DNA of 64,000 nt, from the NCBI GenBank assembly GCA_016282145.1, contig JAEEJZ010000079.1, forward strand, positions 7,327 to 71,326, written 5' to 3'. Below the pieces are notes generated by a model, which made no database searches, had not been told where the DNA came from, and saw only the letters and a list, made by a program, of their open reading frames with translations. The stretch is from Bacteroidales bacterium (GTDB lineage: Bacteria; Bacteroidota; Bacteroidia; Bacteroidales; UBA932). The position numbers were made by a program, and so were the translations under genes. Positions 1 through 48,590 of this stretch are shown piece after piece (the stretch's first letter is position 1; every line of letters begins with the position of its first letter).

Positions 1-1
1 C

Positions 2-718: not shown

Positions 719-723
719 GAGAT

Positions 724-2064: not shown

Positions 2065-2065
2065 T

Positions 2066-5833: not shown

Positions 5834-5924
5834 AGCTCCTTCGGCTCCGCAATACGCAGGAGCTTAGTCGCCTCAGGGGCAGCTACCGCTCCCTTGACGC
5901 GCAAAGCAAAAAAAATGAAATGAT

Positions 5925-6650
5925 ATGAACAACGGATTGATGCGATATCTATTGGGCGCCGCCTTTGCAGCGGGCGTGGCCATCCTTACCGGCGCCGGCA
6001 TCTCCGGATACAGCCGGAGCGTCGCCGATATGGGCTGCAACTCCCTGGAGGTCAGTTTCGAGGGTGGCGAGCCTTTCCTCAAGGCAGAGGAAGTACTGGA
6101 CCTGCTGGAAACGGAATACGGTGTCTTTGTGGGGCAGCGTATCCAGGACATTCCCCTGAGCCGCATCGAGGCCATCCTGGACGAAAGCGGGCCCGTGAAG
6201 AAAAGCGAGGCCTGGATGAGCGGGGACGGGGTGCTGCACGTCTCCATTACGCAGCGCGACCCGGTCCTGCGCTTCAATGACGGCCGCAGCGGTTTCTATG
6301 TCGATGCGGACGGGGTCGTCTTTCCCCTGCATCCCAGCCACACCGCCGCCGTCCCCGTCGTCTTCGGACCGTGTCCGGAGGACGCCGACTGGCGCGGGAA
6401 GGTCCTTCGCACCTATGCTTTCCTTCAGAAAATGGAATGCGCCGCCGATTCCCTTTGCTGCACTTCGGGCGGCGAACTGACGCTCATCGGCACGCAGGGC
6501 GAGCGCATCCTGCTCGGGCAGCCGGAGAGCATCGAAAGGCAGTATCCGCTGCTGGAATGCTATTACAGCCGCATCGTGCCCGAAAGGGGCGCTTTCCGCT
6601 CCATCAATCTCAAATACGACAAGCAGATTATCTGCCGCCAGACAGACTGA
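5925..6650 (+). CDS. ftsQ: Cell division protein FtsQ (N-terminal membrane anchor plus POTRA-like region)
   Basis: 241-aa ORF directly after murC, with a single N-terminal hydrophobic segment. The call rests mainly on position and size. Confidence 0.75.
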   Translation: MNNGLMRYLLGAAFAAGVAILTGAGISGYSRSVADMGCNSLEVSFEGGEPFLKAEEVLDLLETEYGVFVGQRIQDIPLSRIEAILDESGPVKKSEAWMSGDGVLHVSITQRDPVLRFNDGRSGFYVDADGVVFPLHPSHTAAVPVVFGPCPEDADWRGKVLRTYAFLQKMECAADSLCCTSGGELTLIGTQGERILLGQPESIERQYPLLECYYSRIVPERGAFRSINLKYDKQIICRQTD

Positions 6651-8598
6651 TTCCGAGTTCAACTGGAGATTCTGCGCAGAGCGGCAGCCAGAGGATGAGG
6701 CTGGGGCCGTCCCAGGCCTGGTGGATACCCGCCTTGAAATCCTCGTACGCCGCCCCGTTCACCGTAACGGCAGCAGGCAGGCATCCCTCTCCCCGTACGA
6801 TAAGACAGAGGCCCTGCAGCGGCTTTTCCGCACTGGCTTCCACCTTCAGCGGGCCGGACAGGGCATTCAGGACATAGGCCCGCTCTTTCACCTCATAGGG
6901 CACTTCTTCCCCGTTGCAGCTCAGGCGCGGGGCGCGGAGCCAGGACTTCGCCAGCGGAAGCAGGGAGGCCGCATCGCCTTCCGTACAGCCGCAGAGCATC
7001 AGTTTCGTCATCTTGTTCCCTTCTATGCTGTGCGGCGCATTGTACTGGGTGGCCGTGTAGGTATGCGAAGGGGCATCGGCGACGCAGGCATAGCGGCCGA
7101 TGACATAATCCTGCGCCACGGGCCAGTGGTTGCGCCAGGGGAAATCGGAATATTCGGACCATCTGCCCGCATAGCGGTGGATTTCAGGGCCGCTGTGACC
7201 CTTTTCGTTCAGGCCGGGGCCATCCTCCAGGATCAGGAAGGGATTCCAGCGGCTGCGCAGGTAAGTGACCTGGATATTGGCACCGTCCAGCGAAGGCTCA
7301 TTCTGGCGCGGCTTTCCCTCGAAATTCCAGCCATATTCGGCACTGCGGCCGTCCATCGCGGCGACGGACATGATGCGCGAGGCTTCCAGCACATCCTCCG
7401 GGCACTGGGAGGGATGCAGGACCTGTAGACTCTGGCACCACTCGTACCACTTGTCCAGATGTGAACTCCAGACATCCATACGGCGTATGCCCACACCGTC
7501 CGGATAAAAGATATAGGTCTCCTCCGAGCAGTCGCCCCACTGGGTCTCCTCGCTCTGGTAGGGAATCTTCTGGTTCACGCCCACCGGCAGGTTGCGCCAG
7601 ACCACTACGGTCCGCGCCGGCGTATTCTCGAGGATACGAACACTGGAGAAGTCCGCGTGCTTGTCGCTCATACTCTCCGGGCAACCCCAGCCCGTCACCT
7701 TCTGGCGCTCCACGAACTCGTTGCACATCCAGTTGCCCTTCTCGGTCACGAAGCAGGGCGCATAGGAAATACCCCGCCAGAAGACCACCTTCCAAGGGTG
7801 GTCCTCACCGAATCCCACCACCACGTCCGGCACTTCTCCGCGCCAGCGCGCATCGAAGGCCTCGTAGTACTTCAGCGGGATATACCAGGCGCCGAAGGCC
7901 AGTTTCTCCGGCCCGGACGGCAGTATGCGCTCCTCAAAGACAGGTGCGACCGGGCGCACGAACTTCTCTTTCAGGACACGGGCGTAAGCATGCCTGTCGG
8001 CATAGATATTCAGTTCATCCAGCGCCCCGTCCAGGGAACTGTAGATAGGTATTTTCTTGTTCTCAAAGAAACTCGGGGTACGCACCGGCGTACGGCCGAT
8101 CCACAGGTCCCAGGCCTCCTGCTCCACCCAGGGCAGTTCCAGGGGCAGTTTCGCCACCTGGGTCCCGTCGATGGCGAGGAACAGTCCGCTTCCGGCACGG
8201 AACAGGGCCGTCAGGCGCGACCACTGCCGCAGCGGAAGGCCCGCGGGCGATTCGACGCTGACCCACTCCCCTGCCGAAGCCACGCTGAAATGCACCTTTC
8301 CCTGCGCATCCAGCCAAAGGGACCAGCCTCCGGGCGTTTCGTTATTCTGCCGGCAGGCCACCGGGCAGGGGCTCTTGGGGAAAGCCACCGGGCATACCCA
8401 GACATCCACCGTAAAATGCGTCGCCGGGGCCGGCACGTCGGCCGCAGGGACGACGATCCGGCTGTCGAAGCCGTCAAAAAAGGCCGCCTGGCCTTTTGCG
8501 CCGGCAACGGCTCCGTCGTCAAAAGAAAGGGAAAAAATTGCGGAAAGCGCCGCAAGGACGATACAGGATACAGCCATAATAGCGATGGTGCGGGTCAT
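6628..8598 (-). CDS. Secreted or anchored LamG (concanavalin-A-like jelly-roll) domain protein with a ~450-aa C-terminal region of unknown family
   Basis: ORF 6628..8625. The ATG at 8598 gives MTRTIAIMAVSCIVLAALSAIFS, a signal or anchor. The N-terminal ~190 aa look like Laminin_G_3 (FTVDVWV..., GGWSLWLD..GKVHFSV, LDELNIYADR). I did not recognise the rest. The 3' end overlaps ftsQ by 23 nt, convergently. Confidence 0.65.
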   Translation of the reverse strand: MTRTIAIMAVSCIVLAALSAIFSLSFDDGAVAGAKGQAAFFDGFDSRIVVPAADVPAPATHFTVDVWVCPVAFPKSPCPVACRQNNETPGGWSLWLDAQGKVHFSVASAGEWVSVESPAGLPLRQWSRLTALFRAGSGLFLAIDGTQVAKLPLELPWVEQEAWDLWIGRTPVRTPSFFENKKIPIYSSLDGALDELNIYADRHAYARVLKEKFVRPVAPVFEERILPSGPEKLAFGAWYIPLKYYEAFDARWRGEVPDVVVGFGEDHPWKVVFWRGISYAPCFVTEKGNWMCNEFVERQKVTGWGCPESMSDKHADFSSVRILENTPARTVVVWRNLPVGVNQKIPYQSEETQWGDCSEETYIFYPDGVGIRRMDVWSSHLDKWYEWCQSLQVLHPSQCPEDVLEASRIMSVAAMDGRSAEYGWNFEGKPRQNEPSLDGANIQVTYLRSRWNPFLILEDGPGLNEKGHSGPEIHRYAGRWSEYSDFPWRNHWPVAQDYVIGRYACVADAPSHTYTATQYNAPHSIEGNKMTKLMLCGCTEGDAASLLPLAKSWLRAPRLSCNGEEVPYEVKERAYVLNALSGPLKVEASAEKPLQGLCLIVRGEGCLPAAVTVNGAAYEDFKAGIHQAWDGPSLILWLPLCAESPVELGISLSGGR

Positions 8599-8599
8599 A

Positions 8600-8613
8600 T
8601 GTGCCCGAACACA
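8600..8613. promoter_or_regulatory. Degenerate (11/14) copy of the island palindrome, TGTGCCCGAACACA; possible weak LacI-type operator
   Basis: Compared by eye with TGTGTGCGCACACA at 20042 and 23247. It lies between the -7-like box (8614..8621) and the LamG start codon (8598). Confidence 0.35.
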
Positions 8614-8621
8614 CAAATATA
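8614..8621 (-). promoter_or_regulatory. Bacteroidota -7-type promoter box TATATTTG (minus strand) for the LamG gene
   Basis: The plus strand reads CAAATATA, a match to the TAnnTTTG consensus. It sits 15 nt upstream of the ATG at 8598. Confidence 0.45.
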
Positions 8622-8653
8622 GCAAAATATTTCCTTAAATCCATCTGAAAAAC

Positions 8654-8661
8654 TATATTTG
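8654..8661 (+). promoter_or_regulatory. Bacteroidota -7-type promoter box TATATTTG for the MBL hydrolase gene
   Basis: Exact TAnnTTTG match, 7 nt upstream of the ATG at 8669. It mirrors the box at 8614..8621. Confidence 0.5.
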
Positions 8662-8668
8662 TCCTGTT

Positions 8669-9949
8669 ATGGATAGACGAGATTTCATCAAAACCTCGCT
8701 GCTGGGCGGGGCAGCACTGTGCCTGACCGACTGGGAAAAAGCCTTTGCCATGGGACGCGACGACATCCAGGTCGGCAAAGCCTGGCAGGGCTGGAAAGAA
8801 GGCCAGTTCCAGATTCATTTCATCTATACTGGCGTCGCCGAATCGATGTTCCTCATCTTCCCGGACGGGACCACGATGCTGCTGGACTGCGGCGACTTCG
8901 ACGCGCTCGCCCGGGGCGAAAAGGCCGTTCCCCTGCTGCCCAGTGCGCAACGGCACGCCGGCGAATGGATCGCACGCTACGTCACGCGGGTCAATCCGGC
9001 CGTCACGGACGTGGATTACATGCTGCTCACCCACTACCATAACGACCACGCCGGCAGCGACCGCTTCTACGCGGAAAAAATCATCCGGGACGGGGAAGAA
9101 TACGCGCTCAGCGGCTTCTCGCAGGCGGCGGAGACGCTGAATTTCCGCAAAGCCATCGACCGCTGCTATCCGGATGCCGATGAGGTCCTGCAATATGCCG
9201 ATGCCGAAACCGTCGGCCATATGCAACGCTTCTACCGCTATATGCAGCGGCACCGCGGGCTGGAGATCGAAAAGTTCCGCCTCGGGGCCAGCGACCAGAT
9301 TGTCCAGTTGCACCATCCGTCGAAATACCCCCAGTTCCGCGTACGGAACATTTGCGGGGGCGGCTGCATCGCCGCCGAGGACGGCAGTATCACCGACCTT
9401 TTCGCAGCGCGGAAGGCCGCGGGCAAAGCGGTCAAGAGCGAAAATGCGATGTCCCTGGGCATGGTTTTCAGTTACGGGGACTTCCGCTTCTACACGGCCG
9501 GGGACTTCTCCGCCCGCTTCAAGGACCCTGACGGGACGCCGCGCTTCATCGAGGACGACATCGCCCGCGTCTGCGGCCCCGCCCACGTGGCCAAGGTCAA
9601 CCATCACGGTCACAACTCGATGAGCCGTGCCCTGGTCTCCGCCCTGCGCAGCCGGGTCTGGGTCAGTTGCGTCTGGGACCAGTTGCACAACCTGCCGCCC
9701 TGTATGGAACTGCTTTCCGACCGCAGCCTCTACCCCAGCGACCGTATCATCTGCCCCACCATCATGCCGGCGGAACGCCGTGCCAAGGACGGCGACGCCG
9801 CCTGGATGAAAGACATAGCCCGCCCCTCGTATGAGGGCGGGCATGTCGTCGTAAACGTCGAGAAGGGCGGCGGACGCTACTCAGTTTCCTACCTTTCTGC
9901 GCAGGATGAGTCTATGACCGTCCGCAGCGTCCTTCATTTCAAGGTCTGA
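8669..9949 (+). CDS. Tat-signal metallo-beta-lactamase-fold hydrolase, ComEC/COG2333-like subtype (candidate periplasmic nuclease or phosphodiesterase)
   Basis: 426-aa ORF. The twin-arginine motif is MDRRDFIKTSLLGGAAL. MBL motifs are LLDCGD, LLTHYHNDHAGS and a late AKVNHHGHNS, which resembles the HHGS motif of ComEC-type MBL domains. Confidence 0.75.
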   Translation: MDRRDFIKTSLLGGAALCLTDWEKAFAMGRDDIQVGKAWQGWKEGQFQIHFIYTGVAESMFLIFPDGTTMLLDCGDFDALARGEKAVPLLPSAQRHAGEWIARYVTRVNPAVTDVDYMLLTHYHNDHAGSDRFYAEKIIRDGEEYALSGFSQAAETLNFRKAIDRCYPDADEVLQYADAETVGHMQRFYRYMQRHRGLEIEKFRLGASDQIVQLHHPSKYPQFRVRNICGGGCIAAEDGSITDLFAARKAAGKAVKSENAMSLGMVFSYGDFRFYTAGDFSARFKDPDGTPRFIEDDIARVCGPAHVAKVNHHGHNSMSRALVSALRSRVWVSCVWDQLHNLPPCMELLSDRSLYPSDRIICPTIMPAERRAKDGDAAWMKDIARPSYEGGHVVVNVEKGGGRYSVSYLSAQDESMTVRSVLHFKV

Positions 9950-11956
9950 TTACTTGATGACATAGTTGAACGATTGTGCGCTTTCATCGTAATTGACACC
10001 ATAGAGGAGCGACATCGCATTACCTGAAGTAATCACCGTACCGTTCACGGAACCGGACACCTCCACAGGAGCGACGCTGGAGCCGATGCTGGCCTTGATC
10101 TGATTCTTTGCGAAACCGCCCACAAGCATACCGGCCTCGGATCCCCCAAGACAAGTAATCTTGCCGGAGAAGCTTCCGCCCTCGACGCTGGCTTCCTGCG
10201 ATTCCTTGGAGGAATTGCCGACCCATCCGAAGAAACCACCGACATCCAATATGGCCGTTCCTTCGATATCGGCCGTGGAGGAACAGTTCTTAATGGTCTG
10301 GGCAAATCCCCAGTGATGACCGGCGATACCGCCGATTTCCGCGAAATCCTGTGCGCCTTCTATGGTAATCTTGCCGGTATTGGTACAATTCTCCATATAA
10401 GGAGTGACACCGACCAATCCGCCCACACGGACCTTGCCATTACCTTTCAAGATGATATCCCCGCTGTTGCGGCAATTGGACATGACGCCCCAGAGGCTCG
10501 CATTTTTACTGTCGTTTTCGCCATCGGGCCAGCCAACGATGCCACCCAGGTGTGCCCAGTCTTTAGCGGTGTTGACTTCCACGGTAATTTTACCGCTGTT
10601 CGTGCAATCGCTCACGCTGCATCCCCTGTTTTTACTGGGGGAATCATCGGACGGATTATTGAACGCGCCGAAAACGCCTCCCATACAGTGCTGATGGTTC
10701 TGACCGGTAAACGGTTCTCCGGTACTGGAAACCACCTTGATCACCAGTTCTCCGGAATTGGAGCAGTCTGACACTGCGCCATAATAGGTTCCTGCGACAC
10801 CGCCGGTAAAGATTCGTGCGGGAGATGTCGACATCCCTTCCACCTTGCTTTCCGTCCAGGATATCTTGCCCTCGTTCTTGCACTTGTCCAGAGGGCCGAT
10901 AGCCCAAGAAACCACACCGCCCAGTGCGGTGGACACTTTCTTGCTGTAGAACTCACCCTTTTCGATGTTTTCAGGGTCCAGAGGATCCCTGACCGGGCAG
11001 GCTCGCCTGGCGTGATAGCCACCGGAGAGGCTCAGGTCGCCATAATTCTCGCAGTTGGAAAGCGGGGTCAACGAATAGGATACGACGCCGGCCACACCCT
11101 GCGTGGTGAAGGCTCCATTGTCCTTAACTACCAGGGATATCTTACCATAGTTCTTGCAGCCTGAAATGACGACACCGGACTCTTCCTTGGGCGAAGAGAC
11201 ACCGATGAGCCCGGCCACCAGATTGCTGAACTTGTCGGTATGACTGATGGTACGGGTAACATCGGCCTTGTTGATGCAGTCCTTGACGACACCGTTGTTG
11301 CGGGCCACCAGGGCGCCGAAAATCAGGGTATCGGGCTCAAAGGAACAGGAAGCATCGATGACGATGTCCTTCAGCGTTCCGCTGTTGACCAGGAACAGCG
11401 GCTTGGTGGACACCAGATTCTTGATGGAATGGCCCTGCCCGTCCAGCACGCCGGAGAAGTTCTCCGCCGGGACCAGGGTAATCCCCGCCATATCGATGTC
11501 AGCTGCCAGGCGGGCCTCATCCAGGGACACTTCGGTCAACTTGGACAGCCACTCCGCAAGGGCGGCGCCGGTCTTTATGGTCACCTTGTTGTCTCCCTTC
11601 TGCTGTACCGTAAGGGTATTGGTAGTAGAAGTCAGTTCGGGGGCGAACACCACAGAGCCGACCCTGCCGTCCACATTTTCGTTGTCCGTCACGCTGATGG
11701 TCACGGTGACCGTACCGCTGCCCGAATCCGGAGATACGGTAATCCAGTCCGGGGCTTCGGAAGTCCAGGAACCGTCAGCATAGACCTTCATCGTCTGGCT
11801 TTCCGCGCCGACAGCCTCAAACTGCAAGGTTGCAGGGGCAACCCGCACAACCGTAGCCGGAGTATCGGTGCCGCCACCGCCGCCACCACCGCCGGGATTC
11901 TTTTCGCAGGCACCCAGCACTGCGAGAGACATGATCAGGAAAAAGAACTTTTTCAT
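9950..11956 (-). CDS. Surface lipoprotein: poly-Gly linker, BACON-like Ig domain, then a GLUG-type repeat beta-helix
   Basis: 668-aa ORF with lipobox LAVLGAC followed by EKNPGGGGGGGG. The BACON-like segment is TLQFEA..SWTSEAPDWITVSPDSGSGTVTVTISV. It is followed by FSGVLDGQGHSIKNL and about 9 repeats of C-x-N-x-G ... GG[IV]xG. Confidence 0.7.
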   Translation of the reverse strand: MKKFFFLIMSLAVLGACEKNPGGGGGGGGTDTPATVVRVAPATLQFEAVGAESQTMKVYADGSWTSEAPDWITVSPDSGSGTVTVTISVTDNENVDGRVGSVVFAPELTSTTNTLTVQQKGDNKVTIKTGAALAEWLSKLTEVSLDEARLAADIDMAGITLVPAENFSGVLDGQGHSIKNLVSTKPLFLVNSGTLKDIVIDASCSFEPDTLIFGALVARNNGVVKDCINKADVTRTISHTDKFSNLVAGLIGVSSPKEESGVVISGCKNYGKISLVVKDNGAFTTQGVAGVVSYSLTPLSNCENYGDLSLSGGYHARRACPVRDPLDPENIEKGEFYSKKVSTALGGVVSWAIGPLDKCKNEGKISWTESKVEGMSTSPARIFTGGVAGTYYGAVSDCSNSGELVIKVVSSTGEPFTGQNHQHCMGGVFGAFNNPSDDSPSKNRGCSVSDCTNSGKITVEVNTAKDWAHLGGIVGWPDGENDSKNASLWGVMSNCRNSGDIILKGNGKVRVGGLVGVTPYMENCTNTGKITIEGAQDFAEIGGIAGHHWGFAQTIKNCSSTADIEGTAILDVGGFFGWVGNSSKESQEASVEGGSFSGKITCLGGSEAGMLVGGFAKNQIKASIGSSVAPVEVSGSVNGTVITSGNAMSLLYGVNYDESAQSFNYVIK

Positions 11957-11978
11957 AAAGGAAGGATTAAAGGGTTGT

Positions 11979-12965
11979 TTATTTTTTATCCGTATAAGCG
12001 AAATCCGTCAGTACCGGATAATGGTCGGAAATATAGAAAATTCCATAATTCCTTTTATCAACGGTATAAGTCAGCGCCTTGAGCGGGCCGCTGAAGAAGA
12101 TATGGTCGATCAGACCGCCGCTCTTCCCATAACCGTTATCCGTATTCATGTCCCGGGAACTGGATTTTTCCGCATCCAGCCGGGCATAGCCCAGCGGGAA
12201 TTTGATCAGCATCTGCAACGCGTCGGTATCCGAATTCGTATTGAAGTCCCCGATCAGGAAGACGGGATCCTTGCATCCCGGGCCCAGGACTCCACCGATC
12301 ATTCCGGGAATCCGGCTCAGGTGCAGGTTGCTTTCCATAATCCGCAGGTCCCCGGCATTGGGGCAGTTCTTGTTGTTCTGGAAATGCGTGTTGAACAGCC
12401 ACACCGGCCGGCCGAGCTGTTCCTTGTCGGCCAGCTTGAGCCAGGAGGTAATCCAGGGATGCGTGGTATGCCAGGAGCCATAATCGTTGGACTTGTTCTT
12501 GACCGAGACCTGATCCGGCGTATCGCTGTGCCAGAAGGTCCCCTTGTCTGCCAGGTCGAAACGGGACTTCTTGTAGAGTATCGTCTTTGAAGTTTCGTCC
12601 GTGCTCGTTTTCAGGATATCCTTTCCCGTCTCGCGGCCGATGCCGTAAAGGCCGTACTCGTCCTTCACCTTGGAGAGGATATACTCCGCCTGCACCCGTT
12701 CCACCTCCTGCATTCCGATGATATCCGGCTTGCGGGTAAGGATGAACTTGCAGACCGCATCCTTCCGGTTGTCCCAGATATAGTCCCCGTCAGCGGGTTC
12801 GGGATAACGGATATTGAAGGTGCAGATCAAAAGGTCCGCCGTTTCGACCGGCGGGGTCGGCGTCGGATCGTCTCCCTTTTCCCCGCAAGCGCAGAATACG
12901 CCGAGGGAAAGGGCCAGGACCGCCGTCAGAAAGCATTTATTGGATGACATATACTTTTTCATCAA
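11979..12965 (-). CDS. Endonuclease/exonuclease/phosphatase (EEP) family lipoprotein
   Basis: 328-aa ORF with lipoprotein signal ...LGVFCACGEKGDD. EEP motifs are TFNIRY, GMQEV, NTHF, IGDFNT, IDHIF and SDHYPV. Confidence 0.85.
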   Translation of the reverse strand: MMKKYMSSNKCFLTAVLALSLGVFCACGEKGDDPTPTPPVETADLLICTFNIRYPEPADGDYIWDNRKDAVCKFILTRKPDIIGMQEVERVQAEYILSKVKDEYGLYGIGRETGKDILKTSTDETSKTILYKKSRFDLADKGTFWHSDTPDQVSVKNKSNDYGSWHTTHPWITSWLKLADKEQLGRPVWLFNTHFQNNKNCPNAGDLRIMESNLHLSRIPGMIGGVLGPGCKDPVFLIGDFNTNSDTDALQMLIKFPLGYARLDAEKSSSRDMNTDNGYGKSGGLIDHIFFSGPLKALTYTVDKRNYGIFYISDHYPVLTDFAYTDKK

Positions 12966-12975
12966 CTGAGATTGA

Positions 12976-14796: not shown

Positions 14797-14808
14797 ATCT
14801 TCACAAAA

Positions 14809-17800: not shown

Positions 17801-18084
17801 TCCACGGTCGCCCTGCCGGCAGGGACCTTCACAGAAGCGGAAGTATAACCCAGGCAGGAGACCTCCAATGTAACCTCATCGGTACTAACGCCGCCGAGGG
17901 TCCATTTACCGTCGATGTTGGTGACTGTCCCTCCTTTTGCGCCCTTAATCACGATACCGGCGCCGGGGATGCCCTCCCCTGTGGTATCGGTGACTCTTCC
18001 GGACAGCGTTCGCTGAGCCAGCGCCACCAGGCTGGCTGCTCCGAACAGGAACAGCGTTAAACCGATTTTTTGGAATGTATTCAT
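14809..18084 (-). CDS. susC: SusC/RagA-family TonB-dependent transporter
   Basis: 1091-aa ORF with a signal peptide, a carboxypeptidase-regulatory-like domain (GRVTDTTGEGIPGAGIVIKG), a plug region (VVVGYGTQKKVNLTGAI) and a C-terminal ...FGVDIQF. There is no N-terminal STN or anti-sigma domain. Confidence 0.93.
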   Translation of the reverse strand: MNTFQKIGLTLFLFGAASLVALAQRTLSGRVTDTTGEGIPGAGIVIKGAKGGTVTNIDGKWTLGGVSTDEVTLEVSCLGYTSASVKVPAGRATVDLVLENDNLMLEETVVVGYGTQKKVNLTGAITAVKGDDLQNRTAANVTSMLQGAVPGLNIVASSAVMNEAPDINIRGYTSINGASPMVLIDGAEGDLSRVNPNDVESISVIKDGAAAAVYGARAAFGVILVTTKSGSAAEGKATIRYSGRWGWQEPTTSTDFETRGYWSVYTINKFWDARYPGDKYLKYNDNDMNELLARVNDVTENPARPWVVEETVGGVKQWKYYGNNDWYHKLFTDRNPLHQQSLSVTGGGKNFKYFISGLWDHRQGIININPDYLDKYQLRARFEANVTKWMSISNNTSYYDQKYNYPATTMSNVDRTFTHLAAHALPIFPFQNPDGSWVYYSQYFTSSYAVANAAHIKFSENKDRHIERKNEFANTTEINITPIKQLRLTGNFTFRKRRDHTTARMTSFQYKMYPDEEPITKSDGVGTNQLDEKTWNYSYMSANVFATYEDNFDGHHVTAVLGGNWETQYSQYLEAIAYNLISDKLSDLSLAGTAADGSSKQYIDGWQSEYALLGFFGRFNYDYKGRYLLEVSGRYDGSSRFARGHRWGFFPSASAGWRISEEPFFAPAKDVMNNLKVRFSFSSLGNQVVSNYAYLRKISVDNADYMFGEGALARSASISAPNAGDLSWETVQQYNLGLDAGFFKDRLQFTGEAYIRNTLGMLVSGEALPAVYGASSPKQNSANLRTRGYELSVSWKDQFRLAGSPFGYGVSFNLSNYDSYITKYDNNPNKLLSDYYVGKRLGEIWGFKADKLFANDIEAMDYAEAVDLSYVTAGMGYGWSAGDLKYEDLDGDGTIGIGANTVDDPGDRRILGNSLPSLSYGATFSVDWYGFDASVFFQGTGDHYWYPPRWCFPFWGPYSNPMQSFMRRDFLKDVWDYNNTDAYFPRARGYIAEISGGTLNRTNTRYLQNCRYLRVKNVTVGYTIPQNLTRKIKLEKIRVYFTGENLACWSPLFDHCSYLDPEAMEHDDSESYGRSFYPWQKSFMFGVDIQF

Positions 18085-18104
18085 AAATTGGGGGTTAATG
18101 ACGA

Positions 18105-18299
18105 TTAAAAATAAATGATGCCCTGGTCATCTTCCGACATGCCTTCCAGCCCCGGGGTGTCCGGCCCTTCCGTTTCACCCGTCTGCGGGACCATGTCCTG
18201 CGTGACGACCCCGGTGTGGACCATACCCTCCTTTGCCTCGCAGCCGGAAAACAGCAGCGCGAGGCTCAGGATAACGATGAGGGGCAGGGGTTTCATCAT
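18105..18299 (-). CDS. 64-aa acidic, Pro/Gly-rich lipoprotein of unknown function
   Basis: MMKPLPLIVILSLALLFSGC-EAKEG... has a classic lipobox. Its start overlaps the upstream EEP gene stop (ATGA), and it ends 20 nt upstream of susC. Coding status is supported by the signal peptide and the coupling, not by homology. Confidence 0.55.
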   Translation of the reverse strand: MMKPLPLIVILSLALLFSGCEAKEGMVHTGVVTQDMVPQTGETEGPDTPGLEGMSEDDQGIIYF

Positions 18300-20023
18300 T
18301 GATAATCAAACACCAGTGTAGCCGTAATGGGCCAGTGGTCAGAAATGTATTGTACACTGGAATAAGTACGGTAGTCCGTCCCGAACGTACCTGCCTTTAG
18401 GCCATGCTTGCTGTTTTCGTAACAGTAACGGTAAAAAATATGGTCGAGGTTGGAACGGTTGCCGCTGCAAGTACCGCTGCTGTAGATGGTGGAAAAGCCG
18501 GAACAGCTCGTATCGAAACCGTTATAACTCGTCGGGTAGGACGTCTTGCTGGTCTTGCCGTCCTGATTGCGGGCAAAATAGTAGTTGGACCATCGGCTGT
18601 CCCCTTTCTCCGGATTGCAGATGTCGGTCGCGGACTCATTGAGGTCTCCGGTCACGATCATCGGCAGGTGCTCGGAATTAATCGCTTCCAGCTGGTCATA
18701 CAGAACGACGGCCTCAGCAAGGCGGGCGGCATAGGCCTCATCCGTATAATGGGCCGTAAAGTGGGTATTGACGAAATAGAACACATAGCCGTTCTCCTTC
18801 CAGCGGAACTTGATCCACGAGCAGCAGTGACCGTCATCGGAACCCACTGACGAGGGATTGTTCGAAAGCCAGAAGGTTCCCTTGTCGATAATGTCGAACT
18901 TGCTCGTCTTGTAGAAGATGGCATTGGAGGAGTCTGTGTTATAATCTTTCTTGTTCCACCAGGAACCGCTGGAACCGCTGGATTCCTTACCATAATCTTC
19001 GCCCAGGCCGTAGGCCGCATAACCGGAAGTATTGTCAAGGATATTCACCCGCTGACGGTATTCGCACTCCTGGGTACCGATGATATCGGGACTCATCTCA
19101 TTGAAGAAGGCATAGATGCCCGGTTTGCGGACACTCCAGTAATGGCTGCTGTCCCAGCCGCTGTTGTCGTCATTCTTCTGACAGGCGACATTGAAGGACC
19201 AGACCGTCAGTTCCGGACGGGTGCTCAGGCTGGGCGGCGGCATCAATCCGGACAGGGTGGTAATCTGGGAACGGGTGATGGTAAAGGGCGTGCTCACCGA
19301 TTTGGTGGCATAGTTCCCGTTCTCCATATTGGCCCGGATAGTCATCCCGTCATACTCCCCTGCCGGCAGCACGAAGTAGAACTCCAGGGGCACCGTTTCG
19401 TCCAGTTCCAGATTCGGGGGACAGTTCATTGTCACCTTCCGGTTCTCCGCGGAACTGCCCGTCATGGTCAGGGTATTCCCCCCGCGGGCCACGTTTCCCG
19501 GTCCGCTGACGCTGGAAGCAAAAAGAAGTTCCAGGCTGCTCACGTCAATGGTTCCGGTCAGACGGAGCCGAAGTACGCCGCAGAGGTTCTTCATCGAGAA
19601 GGCGGAGATGTCATTGGAGGTGGCAGAAAGCATGGGATTGGAGCCGGGGGCGAAAGTCCCCTCGGTATATTCCACTTCAGCAGGCAGGGTAAAGGTGAAG
19701 GTACTCGCGCCGTTGTAGGTCGCGCTAGGCGGATAAACGGCAAAGAACGTGTCTCCGGCCGGAATCGGCCCATAGAAATTGCCGACGGAAGTGCCTTCCC
19801 CGCTGCTCAGGACAAATGTTTTGCCACTGGCGTCCGAGGTAGAGAACACCTTCATCTTGTCTCCGCGGCACCAAATGACGCTGTTTCCGTCAAGGGCTGT
19901 CTTGGAAGTCTCCTCTCCGTACACCGTAATCTCGGCATACTCCGCTACCTGGGCCTCCTCCTTGCTACAGGAAAAGAGCAGGGCAAGGAGAGCAGGCGCA
20001 AGGAATTTAACGCTAATTTTCAT
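18296..20023 (-). CDS. Surface lipoprotein: fimbrillin-like N-terminal module fused to a C-terminal EEP domain
   Basis: ORF 18296..20056. The ATG at 20023 gives MKISVKFLAPALLALLFSC-SKEE. The N-terminal module carries SKTALDGNSVIWCRGDKMKVF, the pattern seen in Bacteroidales fimbrillin-like lipoproteins. C-terminal EEP motifs are SFNVAC, GTQEC, NTHFT, TGDLNE, LDHIFY and SDHWPI. Confidence 0.8.
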   Translation of the reverse strand: MKISVKFLAPALLALLFSCSKEEAQVAEYAEITVYGEETSKTALDGNSVIWCRGDKMKVFSTSDASGKTFVLSSGEGTSVGNFYGPIPAGDTFFAVYPPSATYNGASTFTFTLPAEVEYTEGTFAPGSNPMLSATSNDISAFSMKNLCGVLRLRLTGTIDVSSLELLFASSVSGPGNVARGGNTLTMTGSSAENRKVTMNCPPNLELDETVPLEFYFVLPAGEYDGMTIRANMENGNYATKSVSTPFTITRSQITTLSGLMPPPSLSTRPELTVWSFNVACQKNDDNSGWDSSHYWSVRKPGIYAFFNEMSPDIIGTQECEYRQRVNILDNTSGYAAYGLGEDYGKESSGSSGSWWNKKDYNTDSSNAIFYKTSKFDIIDKGTFWLSNNPSSVGSDDGHCCSWIKFRWKENGYVFYFVNTHFTAHYTDEAYAARLAEAVVLYDQLEAINSEHLPMIVTGDLNESATDICNPEKGDSRWSNYYFARNQDGKTSKTSYPTSYNGFDTSCSGFSTIYSSGTCSGNRSNLDHIFYRYCYENSKHGLKAGTFGTDYRTYSSVQYISDHWPITATLVFDYQ

Positions 20024-20041
20024 CTTCTTGTGTTTTAAAAA

Positions 20042-20055
20042 TGTGTGCGCACACA
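20042..20055. promoter_or_regulatory. Perfect 14-bp palindrome TGTGTGCGCACACA; candidate LacI-family operator at the susCD-operon promoter
   Basis: Self-complementary with a central CG. The 18-mer AAATGTGTGCGCACACAC is identical at 20039..20056 and 23244..23261. It lies between the -7 box (20062..20069) and the ATG at 20023. Confidence 0.6.
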
Positions 20056-20061
20056 CAATTG

Positions 20062-20069
20062 CAAATATA
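20062..20069 (-). promoter_or_regulatory. -7-type promoter box TATATTTG (minus strand) for the EEP-susC-susD operon
   Basis: The plus strand reads CAAATATA. It sits 6 nt upstream (in the transcription sense) of the palindrome, so the expected start site falls in or next to the operator. Confidence 0.5.
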
Positions 20070-20119
20070 GAATATTTGCCTGAATTATCAAAATAATTTT
20101 AACGGGGTATTTTAACAAA

Positions 20120-20148
20120 CTCCCGGCAGGGATCGGACCTGCCGGGAG
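20120..20148 (-). terminator. Intrinsic terminator after the 947-aa GLUG gene
   Basis: Perfect 11-bp stem CTCCCGGCAGG / CCTGCCGGGAG with a 7-nt loop. On the minus strand it is followed by TTTGTTAAAAT. It sits 26 nt past the stop at 20174. Confidence 0.5.
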
Positions 20149-20173
20149 CCTGAAAAAAAGCGCTAAAACTTCC

Positions 20174-23017
20174 CTACTCGATGCCTGACACAGCCGGAGT
20201 GGACAGGACAAAGTTAAAGTCAACCTTGGAAGCGTCGCTGGTGCCGCTGGTAGCATCGTAAAGGGAACTTGAAGCTCCCATCAGCCACTTGCAGGCCTTC
20301 GCTGTCGTAGTGATTGTTTCGCTGCTGCCCGGCACATCCGCGAACTCAATGCGGCAATTGTTGACAATCAGAATCGGATTCGACGCGGTACCGAAGACCA
20401 ATTTATAAGAAGTACTGCTGGTACTGAAGGTCTTGCCGGCGATGAGCGCCGTCCAGTCGGAACAATTATCAGCATTCGTCTTGTTACTGATCGTACAAGC
20501 CACCACACAGTCCGTGACATTGTCGGTCACGTCACTGGTAGGAGCTTCAACACGGCCGAACAGACCAGCCATATAATAGTCTTTTTTCTGATAACTGGTC
20601 ACCGTAGAACTCGGCGTATTGCCGGAACCACCAGAATAGAAATTACCGCTGGTGATCAGGCCGGTACTCGTGCACCCACGCACCTCCGTGTCAGAGGGGT
20701 AGAATCTCGCAAGGATACCGCCTGTGATGGACGAGCCCGTCGTGTTATATGGACCAAGGTATCCGTTGTTCGTGCAGTTCAGCACCCTCGTGGGCTTATA
20801 GCTACTACTATAGCCTCCGCAGATGCCACCGATATAGGTTGTAAGATTGCCAGCCCAGGTGAAGATATATCCGTTGTTGGTGCAATTGAGTATGCTTCCC
20901 TTGGAGTTTCCGCAGATACCGCCTGCATTGAAGTCCTTCTTCACATTCTGCCCGGACGGGTCGCTTACCAAGCGGCCGTTGTTGATGCTGTATTCCACGG
21001 TACCGCTCGATGTCATATAGCCGACTATGCCACCGAACCAGGTCTCATGATCATGCTTTTTGTAGTGGAAAATTTCGCCGCTGTTGGTATTGGGGGTGCC
21101 ATCCTCCGCTTGGGTCAAAACCAGATTCGAAGAAGTCCCCGCACCCAGGATTCCTCCCATCGAAAGGTCGGAATTGACCACGGCATTGTCGTAAACCTTG
21201 CCTGTGTTCGAACAGCCCCGCACCGTACACTTATAGATGATAGTACCTATAACTCCTCCATAAGCCTGACGGTGATCGCTGACTGTTTCAGCTCCGAGAC
21301 AGATCTGGCCTTCGTTGAAACATTTGTCAATATAGTTGTTGGTGTTGTTGTTCTTACCGAACCTGCCGAGAACGCCACCGACGGCGACGGCCTTGTCCCA
21401 GTTGTTGGTCCCGCTCGTCACGGATGCCGCGGCGTTGGTGACGTTGGCGTGGTTGCTGCATTCCTCCATTCTGAAAGATTGGCAGGTAGCCTTGCCCATA
21501 ATGCCACCGATGCAGGAAACACCCACGCAGTTGTTGGTCACGACACCATAGTTCTCGCAGCCCGAAACGGTGAGCCCTTGGGAATCGTTCCAGCCCACAA
21601 CGCCACCCATCGCAGAATCCTGCGTGGTCGCGCAAGTCGAGTTGTCGGTAACGGGAGCCCGGTTGACGCAGTTCTCCAAAGTCACGTTCTCATTGGTCAT
21701 ACCGACGATTCCTCCAAACGCATGCTTGGTAGTAACGGCAGAGGATACGGAAACGGGAACGAAGTTCGTAACGTTCTGAATCGTGCTGTTACGGTGAGCA
21801 TAGCCCACAATACCCGCATACAGCCAAGCATCGGAGCTTGACTTTGTCATGGTTATAGAACTCGAGCCGTCGGCCGTGGTGCCGTTAGAAGAGCCAAAGA
21901 CAGTATTCTTAAGGACCGCCGCATATCCATTCGATGACCCGAGGGTACTGATGAACCCAAGCCTGTTACTGGAAGCATCCTCTACGGTGAAATTATAAAT
22001 CTTATGGTTCTGTCCATTGAAAATGCCTACAAATTCCGAAACCGGCGTCCAGGCATATCCGCCCAGATTGATATCCGCACCGAGTTTCACCTCATCGCCT
22101 TCACCATAAGCCCCGGCCTCTGCCAGGCGGCGCCACATCTTGAGCTGGGCGGCCGTCATAATGGTCGAAGGGCACCAGGTACTCTTATTGTCAATCTCAC
22201 CCAGGTTGGCACCGCCATTCCGTTCATAAGTCACGGACTCGGATGTATTCAGCATCGTCTTGCTGCCGTCTTCGAGGGTCAGGATCAATCTGTATCCGGC
22301 CGTGAATGCCTTAGGCCAGATAACCATAAAATAATCCCCGGCGGGGAAAGCCGCAGGATCCTCCCCGTCCTTGCAGACCAGAGTCACCTGTACTCCTTCA
22401 GCACTGGAATAATCCATCCGCGGAGCACCTTCCCCAGCGTAGATGAAATGGCTGGTACCGCAGATCACCTCGCTGTTGTTCCCCTTGAGTTGGACAGAGA
22501 CTACATCGCTGCGGGTCAGGGAAACCTTGACGACGGCGAACTGATTCTGGAAATAAAAGGAACCGGTACCGGAATCCTCCGCCGTAGAGACCAGGGCGTC
22601 GGAAGACACGCAACGGCCCAGCTGGACCGTCTGGGTTCCGGGAATCTTGACACCAATCCAGGATTCCGCCGGCTTATAATTATTGACGACCCCATAAGGC
22701 GCAACGGCTAAATAATTTGACACTTCCGCGGCAGAGCCGGAGAAAGACGCAGTCTGCTTGCCCTCGGAACCGGGGGCGATGTCAAATTGGTTTTTGGATG
22801 TTCCATCAAAGACGGCAATGGCGTCCCCGTCGTTCCAAACAAAAGAAGAGCCGCTGATATTGGCCTTGGAATCTTCCGCTGCGGCGGTAAAGGTCATAGG
22901 AACCTTAACCGTCTCACCCCCATCGATGGGGTCAGTATCCGGAGCAAGCTCCTTGTTACAGGAAAGGATGGCAAAGGAAGCAAGGCCCAGCGCAAGAATG
23001 GAAAAATACTTTTTCAT
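20174..23017 (-). CDS. Large surface lipoprotein: fimbrillin-like N-terminal module plus a GLUG-type repeat beta-helix
   Basis: ORF 20174..23068. The ATG at 23017 gives MKKYFSILALGLASFAILSC-NKE. The N-terminal module (DSKANISGSSFVWNDGDAIAVF) parallels that of the 18296..20023 protein. It is followed by FVGIFNGQNHKIYNF and about 10 repeats of C-x-N-x-G ... GG[IV]xG. Confidence 0.72.
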   Translation of the reverse strand: MKKYFSILALGLASFAILSCNKELAPDTDPIDGGETVKVPMTFTAAAEDSKANISGSSFVWNDGDAIAVFDGTSKNQFDIAPGSEGKQTASFSGSAAEVSNYLAVAPYGVVNNYKPAESWIGVKIPGTQTVQLGRCVSSDALVSTAEDSGTGSFYFQNQFAVVKVSLTRSDVVSVQLKGNNSEVICGTSHFIYAGEGAPRMDYSSAEGVQVTLVCKDGEDPAAFPAGDYFMVIWPKAFTAGYRLILTLEDGSKTMLNTSESVTYERNGGANLGEIDNKSTWCPSTIMTAAQLKMWRRLAEAGAYGEGDEVKLGADINLGGYAWTPVSEFVGIFNGQNHKIYNFTVEDASSNRLGFISTLGSSNGYAAVLKNTVFGSSNGTTADGSSSITMTKSSSDAWLYAGIVGYAHRNSTIQNVTNFVPVSVSSAVTTKHAFGGIVGMTNENVTLENCVNRAPVTDNSTCATTQDSAMGGVVGWNDSQGLTVSGCENYGVVTNNCVGVSCIGGIMGKATCQSFRMEECSNHANVTNAAASVTSGTNNWDKAVAVGGVLGRFGKNNNTNNYIDKCFNEGQICLGAETVSDHRQAYGGVIGTIIYKCTVRGCSNTGKVYDNAVVNSDLSMGGILGAGTSSNLVLTQAEDGTPNTNSGEIFHYKKHDHETWFGGIVGYMTSSGTVEYSINNGRLVSDPSGQNVKKDFNAGGICGNSKGSILNCTNNGYIFTWAGNLTTYIGGICGGYSSSYKPTRVLNCTNNGYLGPYNTTGSSITGGILARFYPSDTEVRGCTSTGLITSGNFYSGGSGNTPSSTVTSYQKKDYYMAGLFGRVEAPTSDVTDNVTDCVVACTISNKTNADNCSDWTALIAGKTFSTSSTSYKLVFGTASNPILIVNNCRIEFADVPGSSETITTTAKACKWLMGASSSLYDATSGTSDASKVDFNFVLSTPAVSGIE

Positions 23018-23246
23018 AGCTGTAATCTGGTTAAGGTTAATCTTCCGCATCCCATACGGGTGCACCATCTAAATCCGTCAGGTCCTCTCTGCCGGACCCG
23101 AAAGAATCGCACAAGACACGCTTGAACGATGCTTCAATTGGAAAAGCGTTCGGGGCGGAATACTTTCCCCTCTCACTGAGATGAAGTCTGATTTTATTCA
23201 TATAATATATATTAAGTTATTATCGTCGATTCCCTTTTTCCGTAAA

Positions 23247-23260
23247 TGTGTGCGCACACA
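23247..23260. promoter_or_regulatory. Second perfect copy of the palindrome TGTGTGCGCACACA; candidate LacI-family operator
   Basis: Identical 18-mer context to 20039..20056. It lies in the 308-nt gap between the lacI-like stop (23326) and the GLUG gene start (23017). Confidence 0.6.
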
Positions 23261-23325
23261 CTTATCCATATAATCTTGTCGCAATATTACGACATATTTT
23301 TTAAACCGCCAAATTTTTTGGATTT

Positions 23326-24393
23326 TCAGACCTCGTCGTGCCAGTAAGGCAGGCTCTCGCGAAAGACGATATCGATGGGAAGATACTCCCGTAAGGTCTT
23401 GTCCGGAGCACCGTAGAGAAGGAAATGCAGGATGGATTCCACGGAATAGAAGCCCTGCCTCTCCGGATGCTGGTTGATCAGGAAATCCAGGGTCCCCTCC
23501 TCCACGCAGCGGGCATTGCCCTCGGTCACGTCAAAACCGCCCACCACCAGGTTTCCCTTTCCGCCGGAAAGCGCATCGGAAATCAGATACCCTGCCGAGA
23601 TGACCACGGCTACGCCGCCGACGCCCGGATGCCCCGCCAGGAAAGCACGGATATCGGCATGGCTCTTGACCGGATTATCTATGGAGAAGTAGCCCTCCAC
23701 GACATCCCGGTTCCGCTTTCCTTCGCTGAAGAAGGACTTGAAAGACGCCATCCGGACAGCCGAGTTATTGGACATCTGCGTACCGATACGCCGGGGCAGG
23801 AGCAGGGCCAGTTTCCTTCCGGAGGGCGTGAGTCCGTCCATCAGGTGAGCAAGGAGCCGGCCGCAGGCCTCCTGGTCTGCAAGATAGGCGGCTACCGGAT
23901 GAGTCTCCGCCACTTTACCGTCCAGGAACACATAGGGAATCTCCCTGGAATCCAGCACGTTGCAGAGTTCCCGGGTCTCGTCCACAAAGGTGGTACCCAG
24001 GATGACGGCCGAGCAGCTCAGGGAAGCCACGGTATGGAAGGCATCCCGGCAGGAAAGGGAGTTAAACTGGTCGAAGAACACGAACTTGCTCTTGATGGAG
24101 ATGTCTCCATATTCCACAAAGGCTTTTTCCACACCCTTGCGCACCAGGTCCCAGTACTCGCCCTTCTCAGAAAAGGGAATCGCCACCACGATCTTGAACG
24201 ATTTCCGGGTCTTCTTGAAGGCCACAGCAGAAGTGTGCAGATTGTAATTGTAAGACTGTGATTCCAACACGGACTGGACAGCAGCCAGCGCCTCCGGAGA
24301 GACCTTTCCACGGTTGTGCAAGACACGGTCAACCGTCCCCGCCGACACGCCTGACAGGGCTGCAATCTGCTTTATGGTAAGTTGTCCGGGCAT
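23326..24393 (-). CDS. LacI/PurR-family transcriptional regulator
   Basis: This is the C-terminal part of the 885-aa read-through ORF 23326..25983. The ATG at 24393 gives MPGQLTIKQIAALSGVSAGTVDRVLHNRGKVS, the LacI helix-turn-helix, followed by a periplasmic-binding-fold sensor domain. The ATG at 24432 (MKKNPYIVRNFER...) is an alternative start. Confidence 0.88.
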   Translation of the reverse strand: MPGQLTIKQIAALSGVSAGTVDRVLHNRGKVSPEALAAVQSVLESQSYNYNLHTSAVAFKKTRKSFKIVVAIPFSEKGEYWDLVRKGVEKAFVEYGDISIKSKFVFFDQFNSLSCRDAFHTVASLSCSAVILGTTFVDETRELCNVLDSREIPYVFLDGKVAETHPVAAYLADQEACGRLLAHLMDGLTPSGRKLALLLPRRIGTQMSNNSAVRMASFKSFFSEGKRNRDVVEGYFSIDNPVKSHADIRAFLAGHPGVGGVAVVISAGYLISDALSGGKGNLVVGGFDVTEGNARCVEEGTLDFLINQHPERQGFYSVESILHFLLYGAPDKTLREYLPIDIVFRESLPYWHDEV

Positions 24394-24431
24394 ACGCTCA
24401 AAATTCCGCACAATATACGGATTTTTTTTCA

Positions 24432-24439
24432 TACCTTTG
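24432..24439 (+). promoter_or_regulatory. Candidate -7-type box TACCTTTG for ftsA-ftsZ
   Basis: Matches TAnnTTTG, 32 nt upstream of the ftsA ATG (24472) and preceded by a T8 tract. It overlaps the alternative lacI start codon on the other strand. Confidence 0.4.
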
Positions 24440-24471
24440 TTAGCTGTCCACGGACTATTTTCACTAACTAT

Positions 24472-34763: not shown

Positions 34764-34773
34764 ATGCAGATTT

Positions 34774-36597: not shown

Positions 36598-36610
36598 CGT
36601 ATTTCCTCCT

Positions 36611-48589: not shown

Positions 48590-48590
48590 G

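Follow-up and report, generated by a model that had tools for sequence, protein, structure and literature searches.

The order ftsQ-ftsA-ftsZ within the cell-division (dcw) cluster is one of the most stable gene orders in bacteria. In Bacillus subtilis, several genes are located between divIB and ftsA, and gene gain or loss in the dcw cluster is said to occur in Neisseriaceae. Fragmentation of the dcw cluster was described in Cyanobacteria (PMC8871954), and the rus-like ribose-utilisation systems of Bacteroides, with their defining ribokinase, were described as polysaccharide utilisation loci (PULs) under LacI-type regulation (bioRxiv 10.1101/574913). The stretch analysed here, a 64-kb window (the whole stretch of DNA; G+C content ~60%) from an uncultured Bacteroidales bacterium (contig JAEEJZ010000079.1), displayed a dcw cluster split between ftsQ and ftsA by a LacI-regulated PUL, hereafter the island. 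Gene order, phylogenetic distribution, junction homology, motif positions, and sequence constraint were compared among this window and its relatives (contigs and loci used for comparison are given by L numbers), and the reading preferred on this basis, with a probability of roughly 0.7, was that a rearrangement put the PUL upstream of ftsA and that ftsA-ftsZ (ftsAZ) captured an operator-free PUL promoter.

The gene layout was established from open reading frame (ORF) coordinates and Pfam, and the dcw genes and gltX were arranged as follows (basis ORF and Pfam, unless another is given):

2-718, plus strand: mraY (partial)
724-2064, plus strand: murD
2066-3370, plus strand: ftsW
3351-4484, plus strand: murG
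4481-5833, plus strand: murC
5925-6650, plus strand: ftsQ, with which the upstream dcw block now ends (68-69% aa identity to its L001/L002 counterparts)
24472-25890, plus strand: ftsA
25892-27118, plus strand: ftsZ
27121-28638, plus strand: gltX, directly after ftsZ as in relatives

The upstream block mraY-murD-ftsW-murG-murC-ftsQ was unbroken and co-oriented, and ftsA and ftsZ were still neighbours with a gap of 1 nt, both as in a canonical dcw cluster; the canonical ftsQ/ftsA overlap was replaced by 17.8 kb of mostly opposite-strand genes between the ftsQ end (6650) and the ftsA start (24472). An earlier sequence-only reading of this DNA had proposed such a split, with ten intervening genes, nine of them on the opposite strand, and an uncoupling of ftsAZ from the upstream dcw genes; all of this agreed with the layout, the counts (9/10 on the minus strand) being correct provided that the gene of a 64-aa lipoprotein was included. 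The ten intervening genes were:

6628-8598, minus strand: LamG-like protein of 656 aa, a conserved PUL member (Pfam Laminin_G_3)
8669-9949, plus strand: metallo-beta-lactamase-fold (MBL) hydrolase with a TAT signal (Pfam; 80-88% aa identity to the PUL homologues of L016/L017)
9950-11956, minus strand: BACON + GLUG surface lipoprotein (Pfam)
11979-12965, minus strand: endonuclease/exonuclease/phosphatase (EEP) enzyme, EEP328 (Pfam; relative of PDB 4c1r)
12976-14796, minus strand: SusD (Pfam SusD_RagB; 76-79% aa identity to L016/L017)
14809-18084, minus strand: SusC (Pfam Plug, CarbopepD_reg_2, TonB_dep_Rec_b-barrel; 76-79% aa identity to L016/L017)
18105-18299, minus strand: 64-aa lipoprotein with lipobox LFSGC (called as a gene in L010, L012, L013, and L104)
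18296-20023, minus strand: second EEP protein, a lipoprotein, whose gene opens the EEP-SusCD operon (Pfam)
20174-23068, minus strand: GLUG-repeat surface protein of 964 aa, hypervariable between strains (Pfam)
23326-24393, minus strand: LacI-family regulator, 355 aa from the second Met (Pfam LacI PF00356 and Peripla_BP_4 PF13407)

The closest species-representative genomes were two rumen metagenome-assembled genomes, RUG11938 (L001, FtsA 85% identical) and RGIG3510 (L002, FtsA 81%), in both of which the dcw cluster was whole: ftsQ overlapped ftsA by 19 nt, and ftsZ and gltX followed. The overlap was likewise 19 nt in L107 (FtsA 86%), ftsQ overlapped ftsA in L003 (FtsA 67%) too, and murC lay ~0.8 kb upstream of ftsA in L004, L005, and L007 (FtsA ~30%), which fits the canonical order as regards the position of murC only. 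The ftsQ/ftsA overlap in the canonical relatives supported the split arrangement as the derived state.

The split was found in three species-level lineages, whose FtsA was 83%, 89%, and 99-100% identical to that of the window: (i) L099 (522-kb contig continuous with L016; FtsA 83%), which displayed ftsZ-ftsA, an 80-nt spacer, and then LacI-GLUG-EEP-SusC-SusD-BACON-EEP-MBL-LamG; (ii) the L102/L103 species (FtsA 89%), which had LacI with the same promoter box (see below), then a GDSL-type esterase gene, 11 nt, and ftsA; and (iii) the window's own species, where all conspecific contigs with at least 98.7% FtsA identity carried the island and none had an intact ftsQ-ftsA overlap. The esterase gene of L102 (938-2150), present in L103 as well, encoded a GDSL/GxDLY enzyme that shared 65% identity with the L017 PUL esterase; the gene was located between the LacI-side promoter and ftsA, and in this species ftsAZ would be co-transcribed with a PUL enzyme. 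In the neighbour-joining tree of FtsA, the canonical genomes formed one clade (96% bootstrap) and the split genomes were sister to them, the window and L102 groups being joined at 97% and L099 being added at 69%. The LacI-ftsA junction was homologous in the window, L099, and L102 (over the whole spacer in L099 and over its first 50 nt in L102). The simplest reading would be a single old rearrangement in the ancestor of a genus-level clade, with later local changes. The sequence-only reading had left the choice between an old, domesticated insertion and a rearrangement: a derived and old state without mobility genes or edge repeats was borne out, insertion being one possible history only. It had also allowed for a trait of the lineage, and this applied to a clade of about genus level (three lineages) and not to the family.

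The island displayed the organization of a PUL: SusC and SusD were adjacent, and they were accompanied by enzymes and surface binding proteins (two EEP proteins, the MBL hydrolase, BACON/GLUG lipoproteins, and the LamG-like protein) and by a LacI protein with both an N-terminal helix-turn-helix domain and a periplasmic-binding-protein-like sensor domain. The set EEP-SusC-SusD-BACON/GLUG-EEP-MBL-LamG was also present at other loci in L016, L017, and L104, in nearly the same order and with 61-88% protein identity, next to GH63-like, melibiase, GH39, and similar genes. The intervening DNA is thus best described, as far as gene content and relatives go, as a resident conserved PUL and not a mobile island, and the label "accessory locus" of the sequence-only reading had to be corrected to a conserved LacI-regulated PUL that relatives hold elsewhere and that bears no marks of a mobile island. 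Two genes were swapped between these loci: EEP and then BACON/GLUG followed SusD in the window (9950-12965), while BACON/GLUG preceded EEP in L016 (5702-8678), L017 (14328-17286), and L104 (7070-9998); the swap junctions were very tight, the MBL and BACON stop codons abutting with zero gap.

The partner of LacI in relatives was a different operon. At ten loci with an orthologous regulator (L014, L018-L022, L024, L026, L027, and L104), LacI was divergent from SDR-Nramp-PfkB-gnd, an operon encoding a glucose-1-dehydrogenase-like SDR, an Nramp-family transporter, a PfkB sugar kinase (scoring as KDG-kinase-like), and 6-phosphogluconate dehydrogenase (gnd). The LacI-side spacer of relatives contained two divergent Bacteroidetes-type promoters, each composed of a T-run and TAnnTTTG. 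Two regulatory regions of the window were as follows:

24394-24471, no strand assigned: LacI-ftsA spacer, 78 nt, resembling the bidirectional promoter region of the PUL, with a T-run and a -7 box and without an operator
8598-8668, no strand assigned: divergent LamG/MBL promoter region, with -7 boxes at 8621-8614 (minus) and 8654-8661 (plus) and an operator-like palindrome at 8598-8615

Judged by the Bacteroidetes promoter consensus TAnnTTTG at about -7 and by typical lengths of the 5' untranslated region (UTR) (PMC7366714), the LacI-ftsA spacer carried a candidate sigma-ABfr-type promoter: the -7 box TAccTTTG at 24432-24439 (plus) faced ftsA, was preceded by a T-run, and lay 32 nt before the ATG, a plausible distance to the start. 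TAnnTTTG occurred 19 times in the 64-kb window (128 kb over both strands), and 15 of these sites lay 5-100 nt upstream of a plausible start; the site at 24432 was the sole one near ftsA, and none was found on the plus strand of window positions 1-6700 or in 12.7 kb of L001/L002 dcw DNA. Scanning for sigma-70-type promoters was uninformative for Bacteroidetes. Aligned in the same orientation to the LacI-side intergenic regions of relatives, the 78-nt spacer gave local scores of 30-41, above the shuffle maxima of 26-30 (n=200), in 6/10 cases. Between the window and L099, whose spacers were homologous up to and including the linker that follows the -7 box, spacer identity was 75% overall and 93% in the 42 central nt, as opposed to 45-55% in the third codon positions of ftsA and LacI, and the spacer was 100% identical in five conspecific contigs despite differing flanks; by this measure the spacer is under constraint and diverges far more slowly than synonymous sites. 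This PUL regulatory region abutting ftsA, with its promoter-like -7 box, had been missed by the sequence-only reading.

Further observations on these motifs were as follows. Spacer positions 24404-24471, when flipped, aligned to the SDR promoter plus the left operator half in L104 (16511-16596) and L024 (3915-4000), and a 13-nt piece of the ftsA linker (ACGGACTATTTTC) was found inverted in the LacI-SDR spacer of L024 (12-nt match in L104/L105); the inverted linker match, too short to build on, may point to a bidirectional promoter that was internally inverted or duplicated. The TAnnTTTG boxes at 8654, 14811, 56532, 56567, 57302, and 63907 ended just 5-9 nt before a predicted ATG, which implies leaderless or near-leaderless mRNAs, reported to be rare (~3.7%) in B. 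thetaiotaomicron. A 54-aa ORF at ~23035-23199, in the 257-nt leader between LacI and GLUG, was called in L010, L011, and L013 and not in L012.

A second motif accompanied the promoters of the LacI regulon. The palindrome TGTGTG-N4-CACACA directly followed the SDR-facing -7 box in 9/10 relatives (with one arm mismatch in L024) and was located upstream of the -7 box in L027 instead. In the window, matches at no more than two mismatches numbered seven versus 0.84 expected and fell into four positions, three of them at island promoters:

8598-8615, no strand assigned: operator-like palindrome between the LamG and MBL genes
20042-20057, minus strand: perfect operator palindrome TGTGTGCGCACACACA, just downstream of the -7 box TATATTTG (20069-20062) and ahead of the EEP-SusCD operon
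23247-23262, no strand assigned: another operator palindrome (the third), ahead of the GLUG gene (motif match)
39780-39795, no strand assigned: fourth palindrome position, at the neighbouring PUL outside the island (motif match)

The exact palindrome was also found ~85-100 nt upstream of LacI homologues with ~30% identity (L048-L089, human-gut and other metagenome loci). TGTGTG-N4-CACACA is very probably the operator of this LacI subfamily, as predicted from these positions, and would be a widespread operator that was apparently undescribed before. Upstream of ftsA, no match at no more than three mismatches was found within 24300-24600, and ftsAZ expression would therefore be expected to be constitutive and not sugar-controlled.

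The left junction suggested how ftsQ and the LamG-like gene were joined. The two convergent genes overlapped by exactly 23 nt (6628-6650), the ftsQ stop (6648-6650) lying inside the last LamG codons and the LamG stop at 6628-6630. The ancestral ftsQ tail, ATC ATA TGC AGG AAA GAT ATA TAG (IICR-KDI and stop), held the ftsA start; the tail in the window was ATT ATC TGC CGC CAG ACA GAC TGA (IICR-QTD and stop), homology being clear as far as IIC(R) and no better than chance beyond it. The LamG C-terminus exceeded those of its homologues by 3-5 aa, and the extra LSGGR (followed by the stop) was encoded antisense to the ftsQ tail. Both frames appear to cross the breakpoint and to end at the first available stop, which would account for the 23-nt overlap. 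In the rebuilt ftsQ tail, a perfect 6+1+6 palindrome (GCAGAT-T-ATCTGC, 6623-6635) was followed by a T-rich run on the minus strand; located inside ftsQ coding sequence, it resembled a weak terminator hairpin of the LamG gene and was absent from the ancestral tail. At the right junction, the two candidate LacI starts, 24432 and 24393, lay 39 and 78 nt from the ftsA ATG, LacI homologues starting at the second Met with M(A/P)QQLTIKQ. The tightness of both junctions, already pointed out in the sequence-only reading, was thus exact to the nucleotide on the left (23 nt) and confirmed on the right (39/78 nt). A target-site duplication was considered and rejected: the junctions matched the ancestral overlap CAAATCATATGCAGG at 11/15 and 12/15 positions, and beyond ~12 nt the resemblance was at chance level, and therefore no transposition signature could be claimed.

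Junctions as tight as these (23-nt overlap, 39-78-nt spacer) might raise the suspicion that a dcw contig and a PUL contig had been wrongly merged into a chimera when the window was assembled. Against this, L009, an independent contig 99.65% identical to the window, extended from murG past the ftsQ stop into the LamG-like gene, and the LacI/ftsA junction was spanned, with a spacer 100% identical to that of the window, by five more contigs from other samples and assemblers (L010, L011, L012, L013, and L015), one of them from a 121-kb scaffold, and recurred in two other species; since both junctions recurred in independent assemblies, misassembly, for which the sequence-only reading had asked for a check, could hardly be entertained. 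Also weighed was the possibility that a foreign genomic island had entered this strain or species alone by recent horizontal transfer, and composition gave it some footing: G+C at third codon positions (GC3) of the block 9950-24393 was 0.63-0.73 versus 0.78-0.86 in the flanks and core, with a second PUL of the window core-like (see below), and strain mosaic tracts of 65-90% nt identity were present inside the island. The GLUG protein (20174-23068) was 61% aa identical in L010 although FtsA was 100% identical, and the 3' half of LacI (23326-24100) displayed 65-68% nt identity in L015 while ftsA displayed 98-100%; this mosaicism of GLUG and LacI suggests allele replacement via recombination with the PULs of other species. 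Opposed to recent arrival were the core-like GC3 of LamG and MBL and the presence of the same GC3 offset in L099 and L102, which makes it look like a lasting property of the block or a product of continuing allele exchange; the same LacI-ftsA junction in lineages at 83-89% FtsA identity; and the island in every conspecific contig found. Signs of mobility, which the sequence-only reading had reported as lacking, were not found by any of the searches: Pfam and NCBIfam gave no integrase, transposase, or recombinase in the nine larger island proteins (the 64-aa gene having no Pfam match), no tRNA was near the island edges (the sole tRNA of the window being at 48590), no edge or direct repeats (att sites) were found at the island borders, and Rfam gave no relevant match. 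Taken together, the GC3 offset and the mosaic tracts point to alleles still being exchanged with relatives; a recent arrival from a foreign source was judged very improbable.

The following history would account for these data; its inferred elements are the promoter that is used, the loss of control by LacI, and the sequence in which events occurred. The uncultured rumen Bacteroidales of this clade, which is of about genus level, would descend from an ancestor in which a chromosomal rearrangement broke the dcw cluster within the 19-nt ftsQ/ftsA overlap, possible paths being translocation or insertion of a resident PUL, insertion followed by deletion, or (two) nested inversions, and the PUL would have been placed LacI end first directly upstream of ftsA. 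ftsA-ftsZ would no longer be co-transcribed with ftsQ or translationally coupled to it, as they probably were before, and the upstream dcw operon would now end with ftsQ. ftsAZ would then form an independent unit, most likely transcribed from the sigma-ABfr-type promoter (T-run plus TAccTTTG at 24432-24439), with a predicted 5' UTR of ~25-30 nt. In relatives, the promoter facing away from LacI would drive the SDR-Nramp-PfkB-gnd operon under the operator; at ftsA the operator is missing, and ftsAZ would be constitutive, whereas LacI would still regulate the island itself through the three promoters that kept an operator. A tail-to-tail joining of ftsQ and the LamG-like gene would have taken place in the window's lineage, and the island would have been rearranging and recombining ever since.

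Two other accounts of ftsAZ expression compete with this promoter capture. ftsAZ might still be under the nutrient control of LacI, division being wired to the availability of the PUL substrate: ftsA is only 78 nt from LacI, the promoter facing away from LacI is operator-controlled in relatives, and the spacer holds an operator half-like TGCGGA and a small palindrome, GTCC-AC-GGAC. The latter was not kept in L099, the lack of any operator match near ftsA (see above) speaks against such control, and repression of the essential ftsAZ without sugar should be strongly counter-selected, so that this account was considered unlikely. Alternatively, ftsAZ might always have had their own promoter inside ftsQ, in which case the box at 24432 would be incidental or serve the LacI side only, and the rearrangement would have no regulatory consequence. 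In Escherichia coli and Bacillus, ftsZ promoters are indeed located inside ftsQ/ftsA, and a non-canonical promoter would escape a motif scan; yet the coding strand of the L001/L002 dcw DNA and of the window's upstream block was free of TAnnTTTG, the ancestral ftsQ 3' region is no longer upstream of ftsA in the window, and any promoter held there was therefore lost. The box at 24432, moreover, points to ftsA, is conserved in three species, and lies at a typical 5' UTR distance, and a private ftsQ promoter was accordingly given a low chance. Equally doubtful, though conceivable, is an extension of promoter capture in which ftsAZ, transplanted onto the regulatory region of a carbohydrate regulon and surviving there through operator loss, would still be subject in at least some lineages to residual influence of LacI or substrate; a candidate may be the L102 species, with its PUL esterase gene between promoter and ftsA, and if true, this influence would couple the dosage of division genes to nutrient supply.

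Several points weigh against the capture of an operator-free PUL promoter through a single rearrangement. Concerning the rearrangement, L099/L016 continued beyond LamG with GH63, SDR, Nramp, and a 1705-aa GLUG protein and not with ftsQ, and since the PUL end adjoined GH63-SDR-Nramp there, a simple insertion is only one of several histories; insertion between ftsQ and ftsA is demonstrated for the window's species only. L099 belonged to the split clade at 69% bootstrap only, and GltX distances favoured a pairing different from that in the FtsA tree. For the window's species, no SDR-Nramp-PfkB-gnd operon was located, and none of its genes is present within the 64-kb window. Concerning the promoter, the call of 24432-24439 as the most likely ftsAZ promoter rests on the motif, its rarity, and its conservation. 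The flipped spacer also aligned to the SDR promoters of L104 and L024 (ATGAAAAAAAATCCGTATAT and TGTGCGGA, separated by a gap) with a score of 41 versus a shuffle maximum of 26, and in these two relatives the flipped orientation gave the better alignment; both ancestral promoters share the T-run/-7 design, and the promoter at ftsA may therefore be either the former SDR promoter or the former LacI promoter. The 31 nt that separate the -7 box from the ftsA start codon had no clear source, the LacI-ftsA spacer region may be a mosaic, and LacI could still act on ftsAZ via an unrecognised site. Promoter capture remains a plausible mechanism for a rearrangement that is real, inherited, and clade-level.

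The proteins of the island gave some indication of its substrate. EEP328 matched PDB 4c1r (the BT3783 mannosyl-6-phosphatase) by sequence with an E value of 3e-10, 3g6s being closer and uncharacterised, and this likeness suggests a phosphorylated glycan as the substrate of the PUL. No recognised glycoside hydrolase was found in the window by Pfam, while a GH63-like gene adjoins the PUL in relatives; GH63, SDR, Nramp, PfkB, gnd, melibiase, and GDSL genes were sought within the window, and none was present. NCBIfam named nothing among the island proteins beyond weak LacI-family matches, and PDB sequence searches gave no match for the MBL protein or the LamG-like protein. The latter had 229 homologues, the listed ones being 55-79% identical except for one conspecific at 98%, and belonged to a large family (~650 aa; homologues P0121-P0240) strongly conserved in rumen Bacteroidales and invariant at numerous Trp, Cys, Asp, and Glu positions. 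Its AlphaFold2 model (pLDDT 73) had Foldseek neighbours for the N-terminal domain only, which resembled LamG and carbohydrate-binding modules (lectin-like); the C-terminal 400 residues had neither a sequence match nor a fold match in PDB and possibly form a new catalytic domain. Outside the island, the second PUL of the window (31401-39838, minus strand) encoded a DUF4957-like protein of 1129 aa, SusD of 607 aa, and SusC of 1075 aa, with core-like GC3 of 0.78-0.81.

The order ftsQ-ftsA-ftsZ can accordingly break and remain broken across several species, and the present locus suggests how its break was tolerated here, a ready-made strong promoter of a nutrient regulon, minus the repressor site, standing before ftsAZ. 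The clade offers a natural experiment on the importance of dcw co-transcription and of ftsQ-ftsA translational coupling in Bacteroidales. The analysis further defined the predicted LacI operator, previously undescribed, and outlined a widespread and hitherto uncharacterised family of rumen PULs, for which a phosphorylated glycan is the probable substrate. With the organisms uncultured and dcw fragmentation already on record in other phyla, practical consequences are limited. A limited literature search found no report of a PUL splitting a Bacteroidales dcw cluster or of ftsAZ placed behind a PUL promoter.

As regards the island, in comparison with known systems, EEP328 belonged to the same EEP family as the BT3783 phosphatase (4c1r) of the yeast-mannan PUL, at a distant likeness, but the island was without mannan-specific glycoside hydrolases. 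The island resembled the rus-like systems in its SusC/SusD pair, variable enzymes, and LacI-family regulator, and in the PfkB operon attached in relatives; unlike them, it had no ribokinase, nucleoside hydrolase, or rusT-type permease, its enzymes were EEP and MBL phospho-hydrolases, and in relatives the PfkB was KDG-kinase-like and the attached operon contained a glucose-1-dehydrogenase-like SDR and gnd. As regards the dcw genes, the window shared with the canonical Bacteroidales cluster the order mraY-murD-ftsW-murG-murC-ftsQ, the ftsA-ftsZ pair, and gltX after ftsZ, but in place of the 19-nt ftsQ/ftsA overlap its ftsA had a new upstream region. With the fragmented dcw clusters of other phyla, it shared a lineage-fixed break or gain in an otherwise vertically inherited cluster; it differed from them in that the break was situated at about the genus level within Bacteroidales and in that the intervening DNA was a complete nutrient-uptake regulon with its own promoter region abutting ftsA.

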